A stretch of DNA of 39,550 bases from IMG/VR virus record IMGVR_UViG_3300045988_164840; one strand, 5' to 3'. Both the position numbers and the translations under genes were made by a program. Positions 234-36,814 of this stretch are shown one piece after another (position 1 is the stretch's first letter; the number at the start of each line of letters is the position of its first letter). This stretch comes from a virus. The notes under the pieces were generated by a model. It had not been told where the DNA came from. It did no database searches and saw nothing but the letters and a program-made list of their open reading frames with translations.

Positions 234-1361
234 TCATTTAATGCCAAGAAGATTGCGTGTACTTTCGGTGTCTTCATGAGCATATCGTTTTCTCAACATT
301 TTTAAATCTGCATGTCCTAATACTGTTGCTACTGCAAATAAATTTGCACCGCTGTTTACCCATAATGTTGCACGTGTATGCCTTAATTCATGCGGATGCA
401 ATATTGGTACATCAACGCCCTGTTGCATATAATATGTATGCATATCTTTCATGAACACATCATAATGCCGTCTGCTCCATGTTCGTGGACTTTGTACAGT
501 TCCTTTTTCTGTGCAAAAGACAAATATACTGTTTCTATCTCTATTTTTCAAGATCTCAACAACATCTGAAGAAATTGGGATTTCTCTTTTCCTGAAATCA
601 TTTTTTGGCTTTCCAATAACAATTTTTGATTTTCTTGTATTTGCGTCGACTACATCTGTAACGCCACGTTCTATTTTTAATGTGGCATGTTCAAAATCAA
701 TGTCATCCCATTGAATTCCAAGCAGTTCCGAACGTGTAATCCCATATGACAATAGCAAAATAACATCAAGACCGTATCTATGTGTAGTTGCATATGCAAG
801 TACCATTTTGCACTGCTCTTCTGTGTAAGTTTGTTTTTTTCTTGTCTCTTTTTTGCTTGATAATTTGATGCTGGTGCATGGGTTCACATGGATCAAGCCA
901 TTTTGTAAAGCAGATTCAAAAATTCTTGATAGTGCCATTCTATGCTTTTTTAGCGTTTCTATCGTATATTCATTTGCTTTTTTATTAAAGTAGAGCTGGA
1001 TATCTATCTGCTTTATTTCTTGAATATGTGCTTTTTTGAAATATGGGATCAAGTGATTTTCAATAGAATTTCGATAGGTTAAATTGTAGGAACTATCTTT
1101 CACGGTTCCTTTTAAAGATTCCAAAACTTTTCTTGCCCATGTATCAAAACAGGTTCCGATACTTGTAATAGATTCACCTGTTATGTTTTTGACAGCTTGT
1201 TCAATTTTGTATTGTTCTGCTTTCGCTCTTGCATCTTCTTTGCTCCTTTTGCTGTAAAAGCTTTTGCGGATCAATGTGCCATCAAAATTCTTTCCAACGG
1301 TCACTTTCACTTCATAGCAACCGTCTTTTCTGTTCGGCTTTTCTTTTTTTGGTCTGCCCAT
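234..1361 (-). CDS. int: Tyrosine recombinase / phage integrase
   Basis: 375 aa. C-terminal catalytic pattern ..HPHELRHTRATL..LGHADLKMLRKRYAH (R, H-x-x-R, H, Y). GAGGGAG RBS before the ATG. Adjacent to attL. Confidence 0.95.
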   Translation of the reverse strand: MGRPKKEKPNRKDGCYEVKVTVGKNFDGTLIRKSFYSKRSKEDARAKAEQYKIEQAVKNITGESITSIGTCFDTWARKVLESLKGTVKDSSYNLTYRNSIENHLIPYFKKAHIQEIKQIDIQLYFNKKANEYTIETLKKHRMALSRIFESALQNGLIHVNPCTSIKLSSKKETRKKQTYTEEQCKMVLAYATTHRYGLDVILLLSYGITRSELLGIQWDDIDFEHATLKIERGVTDVVDANTRKSKIVIGKPKNDFRKREIPISSDVVEILKNRDRNSIFVFCTEKGTVQSPRTWSRRHYDVFMKDMHTYYMQQGVDVPILHPHELRHTRATLWVNSGANLFAVATVLGHADLKMLRKRYAHEDTESTRNLLGIK

Positions 1362-1412: not shown

Positions 1413-1441
1413 TTGACAAACGGGAACAAATATGATATAAT
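1413..1441 (+). promoter_or_regulatory. Consensus sigma-A type promoter TTGACA-17-TATAAT with TGn extension
   Basis: TTGACA at 1413-1418, a 17-nt spacer, TATAAT at 1436-1441, TG at 1433-1434. No ORF follows it. Confidence 0.6.
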
Positions 1442-1578: not shown

Positions 1579-3225
1579 TTACTTGATTTTATAATAAGCA
1601 AATTTTCCCTTACCAACAAGTATAAGCATTCCGTCTTCTGTCATTTTGACAAGTAGTCGATATGCTTGCCCTTGGTTTAAATGTAGGAGTTGCATAACAT
1701 CTTTTCTTGTCACTTTTCCATAATTGTTTTTTGCAAATTTTAAAATAAGTTCTGGATAACGAATACGATTAATACCCGTCTGTCGTACATACCCAATAAC
1801 ATTATTTGCATTTTTATAAAGTTCTGCACTAAGAATATAGGATCTATTATTTCCGTTTCCATCTGTTTCCACAAGTCCCGATTCAACTAATTTTTCAATA
1901 GTAGTACGTACCTTGTATTCATTGATATGAATCATATGTGTAAGTGATTTAAGTTGTAGTCTTCTATTTGATTTTAAAGCATTTAATATCAGTAAAGCAT
2001 TTATAGATAATGGCCTTCCAATTTTACTTTGTTCTTCTGCAACCATTTTAATGAATGCCTTATCTGGTAAGCTTTTTGGAATAAACAGATTTACAGTGTT
2101 TGAATTGGATTCTGAATAATCAGGTAATGACTTTCCATAGGAAAGAGATCCTTCAAAAATACGATCAATCCCTCTTCCAGTACGTTCTGCAAGACCAATA
2201 CGTTTTAATGCATCAGCAAGTGCAGGATTTCTTCCGTGCGGTTCTGCTGTCAATAGATTTTCAATTGTTACGCCTTCAATAAATCCACCTGGATTACTTA
2301 TTGTTAAGCCATCATCATCCAGTGCAACGCGAATACGTCCCAATATTGTGTAGTCTCGATGGCAAAAGGCATTTACAAGTGCTTCACGAAACGCTCTTTT
2401 ATCAAAATCTGGAATAGAGATACGAAATAATCCTTCCTCCATTTCTTCTGTGTGATTTCTGGCATCCATATAAGATTCTATTTTTTCGAATGCTGTTAGC
2501 ATAGGTAACATAAACGATTCATTTACAACTACATCTGTGCCTTGTAATTCTTGAAATGTTGCTTCAGCAGTCGGAACAAGCATTGAGAGACGTTCTCTAC
2601 GACCAATCAATAACATACCACAATATGTAGGAACAAAAACACCATTTTGTTCTATTGCCAAACGAAGTGCAAGATCTAACTCTGTATCATCAAGATCAAG
2701 TAAAGTTTTTTCACCGTGATAATTTTGTATGATGCTACGAAGATGCTCTCGTTCTACTGGATCTAAATCTGAATATACAGCTTCTGGAACAGGTTGTGCG
2801 GAATAATCCAGCATACGCAATGAAGAAAGTCGTGAATTCATTTCATATGGGTACATAGGTATGTTTTCTGGTTCCCCATCCAACTTAATTCGTCTTCTCA
2901 AAACTTTTCCATTTGAAGCAGCAACAATAGCAGAATATTTTGGAACTGTTATAATCAAATATTTTATGTTATTTGTATCAATAAGTTCAGTATGAACAGC
3001 AACAGGTGGAATTGTTTTATTTGCAATAAATGCTGCCAATTTTGAAGGGTCTTTGTGAGATGGATGTAATCCTGTAATGTCACCATTATCTTCTACGCCA
3101 AGGAAAAATCTGCCACCATTAGTATTTGCAAAAGCAACTACACTTTCAATTATCACGTCATCTGATAATTTTTTTAAATCGCTTTTAAATTCAATGGTTA
3201 TATTTTCTCGGAATCCAATGTTCAT
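1579..3225 (-). CDS. Schlafen/AlbA_2-domain protein with an HATPase_c_4-like segment and C-terminal winged-helix regions (COG2865-type putative regulator)
   Basis: ENITIEFKSDL..VVAFANTNGGRFFLGVEDNG (AlbA_2-like). FREALVNAFCHRDY..ISNPGG..GRNP..AERTGRGI (HATPase_c_4-like). Start trimmed to ATG 3225, which has AAAGGAG 8 nt upstream. Confidence 0.85.
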   Translation of the reverse strand: MNIGFRENITIEFKSDLKKLSDDVIIESVVAFANTNGGRFFLGVEDNGDITGLHPSHKDPSKLAAFIANKTIPPVAVHTELIDTNNIKYLIITVPKYSAIVAASNGKVLRRRIKLDGEPENIPMYPYEMNSRLSSLRMLDYSAQPVPEAVYSDLDPVEREHLRSIIQNYHGEKTLLDLDDTELDLALRLAIEQNGVFVPTYCGMLLIGRRERLSMLVPTAEATFQELQGTDVVVNESFMLPMLTAFEKIESYMDARNHTEEMEEGLFRISIPDFDKRAFREALVNAFCHRDYTILGRIRVALDDDGLTISNPGGFIEGVTIENLLTAEPHGRNPALADALKRIGLAERTGRGIDRIFEGSLSYGKSLPDYSESNSNTVNLFIPKSLPDKAFIKMVAEEQSKIGRPLSINALLILNALKSNRRLQLKSLTHMIHINEYKVRTTIEKLVESGLVETDGNGNNRSYILSAELYKNANNVIGYVRQTGINRIRYPELILKFAKNNYGKVTRKDVMQLLHLNQGQAYRLLVKMTEDGMLILVGKGKFAYYKIK

Positions 3226-3240
3226 TTCAACACTCCTTTT

Positions 3241-3412
3241 ACGCTCGGTGAGCGTTAATACATATTTATTATAGCACAAACGAGCGTTAAAAGCAAGCGT
3301 TAAAATAAAAAAATTGTTTTTCAATGAAAAAAAGTGCGAATTTTCGGAACATTTATAAGTGTCTGGTTTAACGCTCGTTAACACTCGATACGAGCGTTAA
3401 ACCGAGCGTTAA
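3241..3412. promoter_or_regulatory. Array of GAGCGTTAA iterons (putative operators)
   Basis: GAGCGTTAA at 3250, 3282, 3392 and 3404. AAGCGTTAA at 3295. Inverted TTAACGCTC at 3368. Palindrome ACGCTC-GGT-GAGCGT at 3241-3255. Confidence 0.7.
3268..3296 (-). promoter_or_regulatory. Promoter of the AlbA_2-type gene (TTGCTT-17-TATAAT, TGn extended)
   Basis: -10 at 3268-3273 and -35 at 3291-3296 (minus strand). One iteron fills the spacer, one overlaps the -35, and a palindrome sits in the 5' UTR. Confidence 0.6.
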
Positions 3413-3450
3413 ACTGATTTTTTGTAGTTTTAGTGACATATAACACATGC

Positions 3451-3500
3451 AAAAAATCCCACCGGAGCAGGTGCATCAACCGCTTCGATGGGGTTTTTTT
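3451..3500 (-). terminator. Terminator element, copy A (A-run, hairpin, T-run)
   Basis: AAAAAATCCCACCGGAGC-AGGTGCATCAACC-GCTTCGATGGGGTTTTTTT, located 11 nt after the stop of the 3511-4272 gene. About 90% identical to 6415-6462. Confidence 0.8.
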
Positions 3501-3510
3501 ATTTAATACC

Positions 3511-4272
3511 TTATACAAATACATTTTGATTTTCACCAATAGAACTAAATAAAATTGGTTTAATAGCATAGCTTTCAAATGCAACAATATCTTTTTCATT
3601 TATTTTGTTTTCATCGTTTATAATTGTTATTAAAGTACTGCTATCTTCTCTAGCATCCATCGTATCAAGCCAATTAAAGATTGTAGCATCTCTAATTGAT
3701 TTGTTTAAATGATTGATAACTCTACAAAAACGGTCTGTTGGATTGGCTTTATTTCGTTGAAAATGAAAATCGTATGTGTATATATTTTTCGTTTTTCCAA
3801 TTATTGAAAAATCTCTGGTATAATATATTTCATGTTTATCGAAAAATGTAGTAACATCTTCCAAAAACAAACTTTTTACATTGCTTTTTCGTAGTTCAAA
3901 CATATTATCAATCAGCAACATTGCTTGAACCATCATATGCTTTTTTTTCGGAAAATCTTTAATTTTAGAAACGGCTGTAATCGCTTCTCCATCCAGTGTA
4001 AGTCCATAATTATGAATTGTTCTTTCTAAAATTCGCTGTTTTGTAGAATTTTTCTTGAATTGCATGCCACATGCGATAAGATTTCCAATAATATAACCGT
4101 CATCTGTGAAAAATACATCATTTTCATCAACTTGCTTTACATAAATCTGGAGATAATCGTTAAAGCGGTCTAAATATGGAGTTGTTATTTCATAGTATTC
4201 ACCGATTTTTTCAAAAGAGATACTTTTGTTAAGCCAATCGGTATAGGAATCTATCATTTTCTTAATATCCAT
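3511..4272 (-). CDS. DUF1828/DUF1829-like protein (function unknown)
   Basis: 253 aa. N-terminal YYEITTPYLDRFNDYLQIYV..FFTDDGYIIGNL matches my memory of DUF1828 followed by DUF1829. AGGAG RBS present. Lies 24 nt downstream of the preceding gene. Confidence 0.8.
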   Translation of the reverse strand: MDIKKMIDSYTDWLNKSISFEKIGEYYEITTPYLDRFNDYLQIYVKQVDENDVFFTDDGYIIGNLIACGMQFKKNSTKQRILERTIHNYGLTLDGEAITAVSKIKDFPKKKHMMVQAMLLIDNMFELRKSNVKSLFLEDVTTFFDKHEIYYTRDFSIIGKTKNIYTYDFHFQRNKANPTDRFCRVINHLNKSIRDATIFNWLDTMDAREDSSTLITIINDENKINEKDIVAFESYAIKPILFSSIGENQNVFV

Positions 4273-4296
4273 GCTATCAACTCCTTTTTCTGCTTT

Positions 4297-4746
4297 TTAA
4301 AATCCTTTAAGTGATGTTACTTGGGCAATCGTTGGAGGATCTACAATGTGAAATCGTTCAAAAAAGTCCATACAAAGCTCAAGTAAATTTTTGTTGGAAA
4401 CATCAAACGGAATTGCTTCTGTACCATATTCAGCAGAATAGATATGTAGATGTGCCCCTTTTATGTGCGTATCTGTCTTTTCATCATAATGAACTAGGTT
4501 TTTTCCAACATCTAAGCGAAGTAGTACAATTCCTTCTGGCAACCGACCTAAATAAGTACAATTATCAGCATTAATGCCTTTTCTTTGAACATTAACAACA
4601 AAAGACTGATCATCATCAGAAACAACTTCAAATTCAAATCTACCTTTTCCGTTTGGGATATAATACGTTTGGTTTATTACTTTTCTTTTCAATAAGTTTA
4701 TTAGCTCTATTGCTTCTTCCGTGCTTAAAGCAGATTTCTTTGTCAT
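4297..4746 (-). CDS. Hypothetical 149-aa protein with an HxH motif (GAHLHIYSAEYG), possibly DUF6978-like
   Basis: ATG with AAAGGGA RBS, directly downstream of a strong promoter. First gene of a two-gene cassette. The family assignment is tentative. Confidence 0.75.
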   Translation of the reverse strand: MTKKSALSTEEAIELINLLKRKVINQTYYIPNGKGRFEFEVVSDDDQSFVVNVQRKGINADNCTYLGRLPEGIVLLRLDVGKNLVHYDEKTDTHIKGAHLHIYSAEYGTEAIPFDVSNKNLLELCMDFFERFHIVDPPTIAQVTSLKGF

Positions 4747-4763
4747 ATTTATCCCTTTCTATA

Positions 4764-4792
4764 ATTATACCACATTTTTTGCACCTATGCAA
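4764..4792 (-). promoter_or_regulatory. Promoter of the two-gene cassette (TTGCAT-17-TATAAT, TGn extended)
   Basis: -10 at 4764-4769 and -35 at 4787-4792 on the minus strand, with TGG immediately upstream of the -10. Confidence 0.65.
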
Positions 4793-4817
4793 TCTTTTTT
4801 TCAGCAGTTCTTACTTT

Positions 4818-4850
4818 GCCATCTCCATAATCGCATTCATAATCTTCATT
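4818..4850. repeat. 33-bp junction repeat, copy A
   Basis: GCCATCTCCATAATCGCATTCATAATCTTCATT differs from 6383-6414 by 1 substitution and 1 indel. On the minus strand it encodes ..EDYECDYGDG. Confidence 0.85.
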
Positions 4851-4933
4851 TATTAGCATATATATTTAATAAATACTAATCCTTATTTCGTTTTTCAAAT
4901 CGAGATTGAATTCAATTATTTTTTCATTATGAG

Positions 4934-4962
4934 TTGACATGGATAATTAAAAATGCTATAAT
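4934..4962 (+). promoter_or_regulatory. Consensus promoter TTGACA-17-TATAAT (TGn extended)
   Basis: TTGACA at 4934-4939, TATAAT at 4957-4962, TG at 4954-4955. Lies 44 nt upstream of the ATG at 5006. Confidence 0.7.
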
Positions 4963-5005
4963 GAAAATAGAGGATCTCGTTTTTGTCTGCATGGAGGAAA
5001 TAAAA

Positions 5006-5338
5006 ATGAATGAAAATGAAGCACTTACATTATTGAAAAAAATTTTAGATATGACTAATAGAAATGCTTTAGAATGGAATGCCGATGTTACTGAAAATGG
5101 AAATATTAAATATTTTTCTAAAATTCCAAATACTGAATTTCAAATTATTATATTTGAGATAAATGTAACTCCAAAAGTTTTTATTTTAAATAGCAACTAT
5201 GCATTACAGGTAAATTTAAAATCTTTTGAAAATACACCACTCAGTAAAGCTGAAAAAATTACTATTTCTATTATTACCATTGTAAAAAGTCAGATCCATT
5301 CTTATATAAGAAAAAAGTTAAAAGCTGAATTTATCTAA
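5006..5338 (+). CDS. Hypothetical 110-aa protein
   Basis: Start trimmed to ATG 5006 (GGAGG 8 nt upstream). Its N-terminal motif LKKI-x3-T-x-NR-x-L-x-W is shared with the convergent 5318-5731 product. Confidence 0.7.
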   Translation: MNENEALTLLKKILDMTNRNALEWNADVTENGNIKYFSKIPNTEFQIIIFEINVTPKVFILNSNYALQVNLKSFENTPLSKAEKITISIITIVKSQIHSYIRKKLKAEFI

Positions 5339-5731
5339 AAACTGAAATAAATCAGAAACATCTACACAGTATTCGCCTTCTTTTGATTTCCAATACTCTA
5401 TAACATTTTTCCTTAATTCAAATATATGTTCAGTAAGATATTGTGGTATCTCACAAACTCCTGCATTTTTATGAAATACACCCAACAGTTCTATTTTGTC
5501 AGAATATTTAGAATGATAACTTAGCAAAATTAAATAAGCTTCTTCTTTTTTCACAAAAAAAGATTCGAATTCAGTTAATCCATTTTCATATGCTTTCATG
5601 ATATATTCGTTCAGATAGATGCTATCATCATAATACTTATTGTATTCTGAGATAGGTCTCCAATTAAGTTTTCTATTTTTTGTGTTCTCATTTATTTTTT
5701 TAAGATAACCTTCAATTCTATCTGATATCAT
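5318..5731 (-). CDS. Hypothetical 137-aa protein
   Basis: ATG with AAGGA RBS. Overlaps the upstream gene by 14 nt, so the two form an operon. Its 3' end overlaps the convergent 5006-5338 gene by 21 nt. Confidence 0.7.
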   Translation of the reverse strand: MISDRIEGYLKKINENTKNRKLNWRPISEYNKYYDDSIYLNEYIMKAYENGLTEFESFFVKKEEAYLILLSYHSKYSDKIELLGVFHKNAGVCEIPQYLTEHIFELRKNVIEYWKSKEGEYCVDVSDLFQFLDKFSF

Positions 5732-6173
5732 ATATATTTCCTTTCATTTCTAACAACGAGATCATTTCTCCTAATTTCGTAGTTAATTCACTTAGATTCT
5801 CTTTGGTTATATTTCTTGCTTTCTTATAAATCTTTTGACATTTTTTTATAGATGAGATATCCTTTTTGCTCCATTCACCGTTCTTACCGCCAGTTTCAGC
5901 ATAATCTTTCATTTTACATAAAGATTTCATGATAGTTGCATAAATATTGGTATTGTTGATGTCGCCTGATGACATTTGAGAAAAACAAATATTAAGGTTC
6001 TTTTGTAATCCATCATAATCTAATTTAAATCCCTTATCTATCTTTTCTTTCTGTATAGATCTTTCTATATTAGTTGCTTTTATCATTGTAATAAAACTAA
6101 TGATAATTCCACCAACTCCACTGATAATGCCAACAATCCAAGATGTGATCTCAACAATATTTAAAACCGTCAC
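5718..6173 (-). CDS. Hypothetical 151-aa membrane-anchored protein (one N-terminal TM helix)
   Basis: GTG start with AAGGAG 7 nt upstream. The N-terminal segment WIVGIISGVGGIIISFITMI is hydrophobic and the rest is hydrophilic. Confidence 0.7.
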   Translation of the reverse strand: MTVLNIVEITSWIVGIISGVGGIIISFITMIKATNIERSIQKEKIDKGFKLDYDGLQKNLNICFSQMSSGDINNTNIYATIMKSLCKMKDYAETGGKNGEWSKKDISSIKKCQKIYKKARNITKENLSELTTKLGEMISLLEMKGNIYDIR

Positions 6174-6191
6174 ATTTTATCTCCTTATTTT

Positions 6192-6238
6192 CTGCATTGA
6201 AACAGTTGCTCTGTTTTGATGCAGATTTTTTTATTTTT
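6192..6238 (+). terminator. Plus-strand-specific rho-independent terminator
   Basis: CUGCAUUGAAACAG / CUGUUUUGAUGCAG gives a 14-bp stem. Two G-U wobbles pair only in the plus-strand RNA. AUUUUUUUAUUUUU follows. The minus-strand version has two A-C mismatches and no U-run. Confidence 0.8.
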
Positions 6239-6409
6239 CCTCTTCCAATTCATCATAAATCATAGATATGATTTTTACACGTTTTTTCAGCGACAGGCTT
6301 TTTATCAGGTCTAAAAGTTCTGTATCTTCTTTCTGCTGGTTGGAAATTGTGATATTTGTATTTCCACCAGCGACAGCAACACCGCCATCTCCATAATCAC
6401 ATTCATATC
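6231..6409 (-). pseudogene. 3' remnant of a second XRE-type repressor gene (no start codon)
   Basis: The open frame ..YECDYGDGGVAVAGGNTNITISNQQKEDTELLDLIKSLSLKKRVKIISMIYDELEEEK* parallels the C-terminus of the 7042-7452 repressor (GGDNN..VTI..EIEVLLEKMPRSKQLRAIADIIDLLEEK). It is preceded by an in-frame TGA. Confidence 0.6.
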
Positions 6410-6414
6410 TTCAT
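6383..6414. repeat. 33-bp junction repeat, copy B
   Basis: GCCATCTCCATAATCACATTCATATCTTCATT. Here it abuts terminator element copy B directly. Confidence 0.85.
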
Positions 6415-6462
6415 TAAAAATCCCACCAGAGCAGGTGCATCAATCGCTTCGGTGGTTTTTTT
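6415..6462 (-). terminator. Terminator element, copy B
   Basis: AAAAATCCCACCAGAGC-AGGTGCATCAATC-GCTTCGGTGGTTTTTTTT, located 6 nt after the stop at 6468. One stem difference from copy A repairs a C-A mismatch to a C-G pair. Confidence 0.8.
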
Positions 6463-6467
6463 TCATT

Positions 6468-7025
6468 CTAAGAGAGAAGTACAGCTCCTATTTTATCGGT
6501 AAACTTATTTTGTATCAAAAGAACTAAATCATAAATAGAACCTAATCCAAATATGCCAAAAGTTAATAAATATAAGATACCTGTTTTCTTTTTTCCAACA
6601 TAAAATCGATGTAAGCCGGCGATTCCAATAGCATTTAACAGCAACAAGAAAATGGCAACATATTTATTTTTGCTGCTTGCACGAGAGACTGAAGTTGTTT
6701 TGATTCTTGGAGTTGATGGATTTTCGGTTCTATTTGTTTGAGTTTTTCCTTCAAGTTTTTCGGCTTCTTCTCTGATGCCTTGACGTAGTTCTTCACTTTG
6801 TTGATTTAATTTTTCAACTTCTCTATCAAGTTCCTCTATACTCATGTTGGAATATTTTGGTTTTATTTTTGCCTTTTTTGGGACTCTATCATCTATGTAT
6901 CGATCAGCTCGAATTTGAAAAGTTCTTCCACAATTTTTGCAAATAAATCTTGGATCTCCATACGCACTATATCCATGATGATTAACATGGTCTGATCCGC
7001 ATCTGTAACATACCATTGACGACAT
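6468..7025 (-). CDS. Zinc-ribbon, coiled-coil and TM2-domain membrane protein
   Basis: CYRCG..CKNCG zinc ribbon, a charged helical linker, and a C-terminal GLHRFYVGKKKTGILYLLTFGIFGLGSIYD (TM2-like). ATG 7025 has an AAAGGTG RBS. Lies 17 nt downstream of the repressor gene. Confidence 0.8.
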   Translation of the reverse strand: MSSMVCYRCGSDHVNHHGYSAYGDPRFICKNCGRTFQIRADRYIDDRVPKKAKIKPKYSNMSIEELDREVEKLNQQSEELRQGIREEAEKLEGKTQTNRTENPSTPRIKTTSVSRASSKNKYVAIFLLLLNAIGIAGLHRFYVGKKKTGILYLLTFGIFGLGSIYDLVLLIQNKFTDKIGAVLLS

Positions 7026-7041
7026 AAATAACACACCTTTC

Positions 7042-7452
7042 TTATTCTTCCTGATATTTTTCTTCCAACAAATCTATAATATCTGCAATTGCTCGAAGCT
7101 GTTTGGAACGGGGCATTTTTTCCAACAGTACTTCGATTTCCTTGCAGTTGTTTTCTTTTTCAGCAGTCTGCCGGATAGTGACAGAGCCACGATTTTTAAT
7201 CGCTTGGATGCCGTTATTATCTCCGCCTATGTAAGATTCGGACAAAACTGTTGAGTTATCTGTTCTGCCAAGTAAGTAATCAACAGAAACGTTAAAATAA
7301 TCAGCTATTTTCATTAAAACTGAAGAATTAACAGTAGCACCATTCTGCCATTTTTGTTTATTACTTGCACTCATTTTTAGTTCTGCAAGCAAACCACTTA
7401 CAGTAATTCCATTGATTTTGCATAGTTCTGATAAGTTGTCATAAAAGCACAA
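7042..7452 (-). CDS. XRE-family HTH repressor (CI-like, no S24 peptidase domain)
   Basis: HTH_3 pattern LSELCKINGITVSGLLAELKMSASNKQKWQNG..LMKIADYFNVSVDYLLG. The start is probably TTG 7452 (GGGGGT 6 nt upstream). The longer ORF-track N-terminus overlaps the operators. Confidence 0.85.
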   Translation of the reverse strand: MCFYDNLSELCKINGITVSGLLAELKMSASNKQKWQNGATVNSSVLMKIADYFNVSVDYLLGRTDNSTVLSESYIGGDNNGIQAIKNRGSVTIRQTAEKENNCKEIEVLLEKMPRSKQLRAIADIIDLLEEKYQEE

Positions 7453-7487
7453 AATAATACCCCCATTTTTGTGTAAAAAGATGAAAA

Positions 7488-7533
7488 TAACACCATAGTG
7501 TAATTTTTGGTTGACAATCACACTATGGTGTGA
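7488..7533. promoter_or_regulatory. Two operator-like inverted repeats (ACAC-N6-GTGT core)
   Basis: TAACACCATAGTGTAA at 7488-7503 and TCACACTATGGTGTGA at 7518-7533. The second fills the spacer of the rightward promoter. Confidence 0.7.
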
Positions 7534-7539
7534 TATAAT
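7511..7539 (+). promoter_or_regulatory. Rightward consensus promoter TTGACA-17-TATAAT of the switch
   Basis: TTGACA at 7511-7516, TATAAT at 7534-7539. Divergent from the repressor gene. Confidence 0.7.
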
Positions 7540-7802
7540 AAAACCACGGTCGAGATAAAGCACGCTATACCAAATAAAAAAAAGAACGTTTCCGGTTGAT
7601 TTTCATGAGCAAACGGGAAATAAAGCGATTTTCAAGCGTGCTTTACTTTATTGTATCATGTTCCATTTTATTTGTCAATAGAAAGCATATTATTTGCAGA
7701 AATTCTTTGACGATGGAAAATGAAATGTTTAACAAAATCAGTCGAGGACAGGTAGCGGAAAACCCAAACGCTCGACTGAAATTAAAAGAAGGTGGTGAAA
7801 TA

Positions 7803-36785: not shown

Positions 36786-36814
36786 ATTATACCACATTAA
36801 AAGGTGGTTGTCAA
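36786..36814 (-). promoter_or_regulatory. Consensus promoter TTGACA-17-TATAAT (TGn extended) on the minus strand
   Basis: -10 at 36786-36791 and -35 at 36809-36814, read on the minus strand. Confidence 0.7.

Follow-up and report, generated by a model that had tools for sequence, protein, structure and literature searches.

The concept of the noncontiguous operon reportedly goes back to Saenz-Lahoya in 2019, and that of the excludon to Sesto in 2013. Noncontiguous operons have been collected in an atlas (PMC11034616), and the closest described relative of the locus analysed here is the Tha/Ith system of the Staphylococcus aureus prophages 80alpha, phi11 and phiNM2 (Rostol et al. 2024, PMC11087260). 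In 80alpha, the cI promoter drives the defence gene tha, which encodes a HEPN protein, and the small antisense gene ith, which overlaps tha and was long mis-annotated as xis, is transcribed from a constitutive promoter and encodes a protein that inhibits Tha; this noncontiguous operon ties immunity to the life cycle of the prophage and avoids autoimmunity on induction (PMC11087260). In Tai/Ati of phi80 and its relatives, the immune and counter-immune genes lie on opposite strands and their overlapping transcripts repress each other, and more such pairs have been predicted (PMC11364771). Here we describe a convergent three-gene locus in the viral record IMGVR_UViG_3300045988_164840, a stretch of 39,550 nucleotides (nt) that we refer to as the window. 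We designate the plus-strand gene E, its promoter P_E, and the two overlapping minus-strand genes G and F (Table 1).

An earlier note made from the window had recognised no annotated counterpart of this arrangement. This holds for the three proteins, not for the architecture, which has counterparts in Tha/Ith (PMC11087260) and Tai/Ati (PMC11364771). By analogy with these systems, the layout is not unprecedented and belongs to the kind in which prophage immunity is paired with an antisense antidote. We tentatively favour, with confidence slightly short of even, a reading in which G-F is a lysogen-expressed membrane module for exclusion or abortive infection, E is its self-inhibitor, and an antisense RNA reinforces the inhibition.

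Comparison with Tha/Ith revealed that in both systems (i) the candidate defence genes lie in the prophage lysogeny region, in the case of tha under the cI promoter; (ii) a small antisense gene with its own promoter overlaps the defence gene, F and E sharing 21 nt at their 3' ends and the promoter being conserved here, and ith lying between the defence gene and the integrase gene int; (iii) the expression states are mutually exclusive, which for our locus is predicted by analogy; and (iv) the small gene in the "xis" position follows the defence gene and not the integrase. The differences are that the proteins are unrelated, with no HEPN domain in F or G in Pfam and PADLOC searches and no PDB neighbour for the F model; that the putative defence part here comprises two proteins, one of them membrane-anchored; that P_E is a perfect consensus promoter, whereas P_ith is weaker than the cI promoter; and that the predicted antisense transcript spans the whole module and ends at a dedicated one-way terminator. 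With Tai/Ati, the locus shares the opposite-strand pairing of putative immune and counter-immune genes. In phi80, however, the immune gene is the antisense one and lies inside the late operon, whereas here the putative inhibitor is antisense and the pairing lies in the lysogeny operon.

How the genes of the locus are ordered, which signals they carry, how far they are conserved and where they occur together were read directly from the window and its relatives. The G-F-E triad occurs on 20 contigs beyond the window; the three genes do co-occur elsewhere, and the absence of such co-occurrence, which the earlier note had named as grounds against its reading, does not apply. The contigs carry six sequence versions, in which E and G diverge down to 24–30% identity: the window type (L012-17, 99% nt identity to the window), the L010 type (L010, 85%), the L004 type (L004-9 and L011, 77%), the L001 type (L001-3, with amino acid (aa) identities to the window of 55% for F, 25–30% for E and 28–31% for G), the L018 type (L018-19; 48%, 29% and 28% for F, E and G) and the L024 type (L024; 46% for F and 24% for E, with a G-like protein of just 89 aa). 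The triad travels as one unit across differing prophage contexts and integrase types, and the convergent layout, the strong extended −10 promoter of E and the terminator-free stretch from E to G recur in the diverged versions. The ratio of nonsynonymous to synonymous substitution rates (dN/dS) between versions was 0.13–0.19 for E, 0.06–0.09 for F and 0.16–0.34 for G, the highest of the three; by this measure, all three genes are under purifying selection.

The third component is not constant. In L020 and L025, an unrelated 77–79-aa gene of the CxxC...CxxC Zn-ribbon kind stands in the place of E, likewise convergent with and overlapping F; in L020 it carries a 12/12 promoter. This replacement points to interchangeable partners, not homologous to each other, for one common G-F core. 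L022 and L028 have G-F with no convergent gene beside it. E is not universal. In L022, the G-like/F-like pair (2558-3747, plus strand) lies inside a DpnII-type restriction-modification cassette (Dam-type methyltransferase, DpnII and N6_N4 methyltransferase), and its F is fused to an extra C-terminal domain of ~100 aa with no detectable relatives. This extension was tested as an E-like domain and was found not to be E-like. The G-F pair of L025 adjoins an N6_N4 methyltransferase, and a DUF4041/T5orf172 gene follows G-F in L028. These neighbourhoods, like the defence-type genes in the lysogeny region of the window, count in favour of the reading that we prefer.

The perfect promoter reported at 4934 was recovered with all 12 consensus positions and proved to have an extended −10 element as well. 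The window contains 4 exact TTGACA-17-TATAAT matches, whereas 0.02 would be expected on the basis of shuffled sequences. Equivalent promoters precede E in L012 (12/12), L004 (12/12), L001 (11/12) and L018 (TGgTATAAT), and overall the E promoter matches 11–12 of 12 positions or contains TGnTATAAT in the first five versions; the promoter of the E-like gene in L024 matches 11/12 and has no TG. P_E does not resemble the cI/cro operator palindrome (7487-7534) and is therefore probably constitutive. The 110-aa reading frame behind it is present as described, with a well-placed ribosome-binding site (RBS). The residues T17, W24, I34, Y36, I40, E51, P56 and E83 are invariant in the E family.

Beyond the stop codon of E, the plus strand has no open reading frame (ORF) of at least 60 aa in 5339-6191, in agreement with the earlier note; the largest comprise 32 and 39 aa, have no RBS and are not conserved in relatives, and a hidden second cistron was rejected because these are only shadow ORFs. 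A consensus scan of 4000-7800 identified the hairpin at 6191 as the sole plus-strand terminator, and a relaxed search for a hairpin plus T-run on the plus strand of 4960-6300 added one weak candidate, which ends near 5466 (−7.3 kcal/mol). The claim that no plus-strand terminator precedes ~6192-6238 therefore stands apart from this weak candidate, and the first strong terminator facing P_E at 4934 is at 6191. Its stem is perfect only in plus-strand RNA, as had been noted: the plus strand forms 15 uninterrupted pairs (−19.9 kcal/mol, z = −7.0) followed by a U-run, versus two internal loops (−15.2 kcal/mol) and no U-run on the minus strand. From this geometry, we infer the existence and length of an E mRNA running antisense over G-F to a dedicated terminator, an architecture that was proposed for the window and that recurs in diverged versions with differing stems. 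The untranslated 3' extension of this RNA would be composed of 42% U, 17.7% C and 10% G.

A terminator on the E strand lies just upstream of the RBS of G in four versions, at the same place and with differing stem sequences: TCTGCATTGAAACAG... in the window and L012-17, CCCCACCGAG... in the L004 type (L004/L011), CTCTCACC... in the L001 type and GCTCATACC... in the L018 type. The four stems have folding energies of −13 to −23.5 kcal/mol, and each is followed by the T-run TTTTTTTAT(T) or CTTTTTTAT. No E-strand terminator was found between E and G in the four versions that could be examined there; the L010 contig stops inside G.

The minus-strand genes are arranged with the repressor in the relatives. 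G-F begins 57 nt past the cI-like gene in L012-17, follows helix-turn-helix (HTH)-ImmA in L001 and L018, and follows an HTH gene in L020 and an HTH-S24 repressor in L028. The repressor-to-G gaps of the prophage relatives leave no room for a promoter of its own. Since G-F lies directly behind the repressor and has no promoter of its own in the relatives, we regard it as the tail of the cI (lysogeny) operon. The coordinates of the proposed minus-strand operon and its 21-nt overlap with E are correct, and it is not a free-standing operon. In the window, the 3' part of an otherwise lost second cI-like repressor gene (6238-6393) directly precedes the hairpin and G. This remnant shares 99% identity with the corresponding end of the intact HTH gene (135 aa) found ahead of G in L012-L017, and 95% identity with its L004 counterpart. 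The layout in the relatives and this remnant together match the position of the defence gene in the cI operon known from Tha/Ith. No minus-strand terminator was found between the stop codon of F and the PDC-M24 pair, the next minus-strand genes in the window. Obligatory transcription of PDC-M24 through the cassette was considered and withdrawn once its own extended −10 promoter (TGgTATAAT, ~4797-4766) was found; with this promoter, a strict operon through E is not required. In L004, L001 and L018, the next gene past E is int.

On the reading that we favour, G-F would be a lysogen-expressed anti-phage module at the membrane, acting by superinfection exclusion or abortive infection, with F as the sensor or partner and G as the effector, oligomerising via its glycine-zipper transmembrane helix. 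We infer this defence activity, and the inhibition by E, by analogy: E would be the cognate inhibitor that prevents self-harm, as Ith is for Tha and Ati for Tai. While transcription of the cI operon is on, its collision with P_E would allow G-F to be produced. Upon induction or a new infection, the cI promoter would fall silent and P_E would prevail, yielding the E protein and an RNA of ~1.27 kb. The 3' 850 nt of this RNA would pair with leftover G-F mRNA and act through RNase III cleavage and transcriptional interference, and the terminator at 6191 would keep antisense transcription out of cI.

Several observations weigh against this interpretation. First, the perfect consensus of P_E differs from the situation in 80alpha, where P_ith is weaker than the cI promoter, and G-F might be largely silenced in lysogens instead of expressed. 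Second, G-F here lies behind the remnant of a truncated repressor gene and, beyond it, a terminator of the bidirectional kind (6416-6467), so its expression in the window is uncertain. Third, E is not obligatory because L022 and L028 carry G-F without a convergent gene. Fourth, none of E, F and G matches a known defence, toxin or inhibitor family. Fifth, no terminator upstream of G was found in the more distant L020 and L024. Sixth, the synonymous substitution rate (dS) in F and G is 0.7–1.1, so no constraint from an RNA-level function is visible at synonymous sites. Finally, the untranslated RNA is rich in C and poor in G, which makes it a plausible target of Rho, and it may be terminated prematurely. 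The last three points would equally fit incidental compaction, an alternative that we consider somewhat unlikely, in which unrelated or loosely related morons lie tail to tail, read-through from E is noise halted by Rho or by collision, and the 6191 hairpin is a generic boundary insulator with no regulatory role. Similar terminator modules do occur at other junctions of the region (the direct repeat D1, at 3452 and 6416), and the terminator of L004 resembles D1. Yet such compaction would not lead one to expect that the triad moves as a unit between prophage contexts and integrase types, that a convergent consensus-promoter gene overlapping the 3' end of F is kept even when the Zn-ribbon gene replaces E, or that the terminator keeps its position and strand while its sequence changes.

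The protein G contains one N-terminal transmembrane helix (residues ~5–31; hydropathy peak 2.38) with a G-x3-G-x2-G motif. The flank after the helix carries +6/−3 charges, which predicts a C-in topology, and the remainder forms a helical, predicted cytoplasmic domain of ~120 aa with a conserved C-terminal L..LE...N.DIR motif in the family alignment. F is translationally coupled to G. The AlphaFold2 model of F built from a 23-sequence alignment had a predicted local distance difference test score (pLDDT) of 87.4 and a predicted template-modelling score (pTM) of 0.81; a 3-sequence alignment gave a pLDDT of 46 and was of no use. The model has no relative in the PDB (best E-value 0.21, TM-score 0.27), with only chance-level PUR-alpha/Whirly-like matches, and in BFVD it matched two uncharacterised gut siphovirus proteins (E-value 6e-6, TM-score 0.62). 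A word-indexed protein search returned 2–4 clusters each for E, F and G, which gave them a near-orphan look; an exhaustive HMMER search of 1.84 billion proteins gave more for F, whose family has 28 cluster representatives. No match to E, F or G was found in Pfam, PHROG, PADLOC (E-value ≤ 0.1) or PDB sequences, nor by tblastn among 50,697 GenBank phage records (INPHARED), and a PADLOC scan of 23 F-family members gave one chance-level match only. E, F and G are new, uncharacterised proteins.

In lambda cI-rexA-rexB, lysogens express an exclusion system of two proteins, one in the membrane and the other in the cytoplasm, from genes that follow the repressor gene. G-F resembles it as a membrane and soluble pair behind a repressor gene; the two are unrelated in sequence and fold, RexB crosses the membrane with four helices versus one in G, and lambda has no convergent inhibitor gene. 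Exclusion genes of the lactococcal Sie2009 type lie between the repressor and integrase genes. PdpSau and AbiP are N-terminally anchored prophage abortive-infection proteins that are expressed in lysogens and have a single transmembrane helix and a cytoplasmic domain (PMC10127798). G shares with PdpSau, AbiP and Sie2009 the prophage origin, the single N-terminal helix and the cytoplasmic domain; no homology was detected, and those proteins act singly, with neither a partner like F nor an antisense gene.

The membrane helix of G also bears on the possibility, rather improbable in our judgement, that the locus is an addiction module of the toxin–antitoxin kind, which would stabilise the prophage instead of defending against phages, with G as a membrane toxin, F and/or E as protein antitoxins, and the long 3' untranslated region (UTR) of E as a type I-like antisense antitoxin. 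The prophage type I systems txpA/RatA and bsrG/SR4 have a convergent toxin/antisense layout that overlaps at the 3' ends, which the locus resembles. The glycine-zipper helix of G would suit a membrane toxin, and the cassette lies near RelB/YoeB and HicAB in L010 and near a DUF4258 pair in L004. Against this, G has 151 aa and a large cytoplasmic domain, whereas type I toxins are under 60 aa; G-F occurs without a convergent gene in L022 and L028; and E is a conserved protein-coding gene, more than an RNA. A classic type I system, with a hydrophobic toxin under 60 aa and a non-coding antisense RNA, was rejected on account of the length of G and the coding nature of E.

E and F have a common N-terminal motif (LKKI-x3-T-x-NR-x-L-x-W), which was described in the earlier note and lies in the same register, at residues 10–24, in both proteins; neither T17 nor W24 varies in either family. 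The paralogy proposed from it did not find significant support in four comparisons, as BLASTP gave an E-value of 0.38 and hhalign gave 0.2, 0.19 and, at best, 0.059 (probability below 1%); by sequence comparison it is unproven. A bolder proposal builds on the motif, and we consider it unlikely: G-F would be an unrecognised membrane anti-phage system, low in density but widespread in gut and rumen Clostridia prophages, with E as its off-switch, a paralogue of F that has become shorter and that vies with F for G via the shared N-terminal helix (L..I...T......W). The 850-nt antisense 3' UTR and the one-way terminator would then be a second, RNA-level lock, such that one transcript combines a protein decoy with an excludon.

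The position of E raises a further alternative, namely that E and its Zn-ribbon substitute are excisionases or recombination directionality factors in the classical xis position and are unrelated to G-F. In L004, L011, L001, L018, L020 and L024, the convergent gene is indeed immediately upstream of, and antiparallel to, the integrase gene. This explanation is very improbable, since E tracks G-F and not the integrase type: E proteins that are 74–87% identical adjoin a tyrosine integrase in L004 and L011, a close relative of E in L010 lies near a serine recombinase and behind two toxin–antitoxin pairs, and in the window and L012-17 E is not beside the integrase, with PDC-M24 in between. Moreover, E has no HTH or Xis-family match. 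We thus rejected E as an excisionase; the same reasoning overturned the "xis" annotation in 80alpha (PMC11087260).

The window represents a temperate prophage of siphovirus-like type, whose host is a Firmicute of the Ruminococcus type. Its large terminase is 69% identical to that of a human-faecal phage and 45% identical to those of Butyrivibrio phages, and the triad-related loci come from uncultured Ruminococcus metagenome-assembled genomes and from gut and rumen metagenomes. The lysogeny region occupies the left end on the minus strand in the order int, Schlafen-like gene, PDC-M24B/A, the E/F/G locus, TM2 gene and cI-like repressor (Table 1). The repressor probably starts at an internal codon, giving ~135 aa, and is flanked by divergent consensus promoters, of which the divergent 12/12 promoter at 7511 bears the operator palindrome. 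The Schlafen-like protein, which has weak PADLOC matches to Argonaute-associated proteins, may be a further lysogen-expressed defence or regulatory gene beside int. The PDC-M24 pair also adjoins the triad in L004-6 and L012-17, at times on the opposite side. No match was found by megablast of 3400-7600 against GenBank phages, and Rfam gave none at gathering thresholds in the whole window and none at E-value ≤ 1 in 4700-6500.

The locus has a GC content of 26%, versus 40–50% in the phage body and structural genes. In blastn comparisons, the window flanks 4743-4851 and 6238-6393 abut in L004 (3927-4034 and 3767-3922), whose own cassette is located elsewhere; by this comparison, 4852-6237 appears as an insertion and constitutes a portable cassette within the lysogeny region. 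On either side of the cassette region lies a copy of a 33-nt junction repeat (4818-4850 and 6383-6415). The D1 module has A- and T-runs and folds on either strand, and its copy at 6416-6467 separates the cassette from the TM2 gene, which is inserted between cassette and repressor here and is not present in L012-17; this copy may reduce read-through into G-F in the window. The D1 copies, the junction repeat and the truncated repressor are recombination joints of a mosaic lysogeny region.

Two further perfect consensus promoters lie elsewhere in the window. One (1413-1441, plus strand, TGa extended −10) is between int and the Schlafen-like gene; ~30 nt behind it comes a hairpin with a T-run that is strong in both directions (1474-1515, −22 to −24 kcal/mol). 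This unit (1413-1520) would yield a ~70-nt ORF-free transcript and may serve as a small RNA or a transcriptional roadblock; L018 has an analogue, a consensus promoter with an immediate terminator, beside its serine integrase (9090-8994, minus strand). The fourth perfect promoter of the window, with an extended −10 (36786-36814, minus strand), is near the right end of the prophage and points toward the late genes.

Table 1. Features of the E/F/G locus and its surroundings (window coordinates unless a contig is named)
Feature	Position	Strand	Remarks
Promoter P_E	4934-4962	+	TTGACA-17-TATAAT, 12/12 match, TGc extended −10; start expected near 4969
Gene E	5006-5338	+	110 aa, soluble; ATG start; GGAGGA RBS 4993-4998, 7 nt upstream
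Untranslated 3' extension of the predicted E transcript	5339-6190	+	antisense to all of F and G; predicted from promoter and terminator positions
Orientation-specific intrinsic terminator	6191-6238	+	stem 6191-6225, then TTTTTTTATTTTT; within the 5' leader of G on the opposite strand
Gene F	5318-5731	-	137 aa, soluble alpha/beta protein; overlaps G by 14 nt
Gene G	5718-6173	-	151 aa; GTG start; AAGGAGA RBS 6180-6186
Mobile cassette (P_E, E, F, G, terminator)	4852-6237		blastn against relatives, low GC
3' remnant of second cI-like repressor gene	6238-6393	-	156 nt; directly upstream of hairpin and G
Bidirectional terminator module, direct repeat D1	6416-6467; second copy 3452-3503		52 nt; copies 88% identical
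Tyrosine integrase	234-1361	-	
Schlafen AlbA_2/HATPase_c_4/wHTH protein	1579-3384	-	601 aa; two winged-helix domains
PDC-M24B/A pair	3511-4746	-	DUF1828/DUF1829 (253 aa) and DUF6978 (149 aa); PADLOC candidate defence system, E-values 4.5e-77 and 8.6e-21
TM2/zinc-ribbon protein	6468-7034	-	188 aa; N-terminal zinc ribbon, coiled-coil-like linker, C-terminal TM2 domain
cI-like HTH repressor	7042-7563	-	HTH_26 and phrog_8 matches
Zn-ribbon replacement gene	L020 4014-4253; L025 3954-4187	-	

Beside Tha/Ith and Tai/Ati, the locus is a possible instance of the rule proposed in 2024, according to which a prophage immune module and its antidote lie on opposite strands and the lysis-lysogeny switch toggles immunity. 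If the reading of G-F as an exclusion or abortive-infection module inhibited by E is true, the locus would be the third independent case of this rule and the first in gut Firmicutes that are strict anaerobes. Three families would then join the catalogue of defence and counter-defence proteins: a single-pass membrane protein, an alpha/beta partner for which the PDB holds no structural relative, and a small inhibitor. The one-way terminator, repeatedly re-invented and shielding the repressor gene, would be a clean design feature, and may provide a computational signature by which more such pairs can be found.

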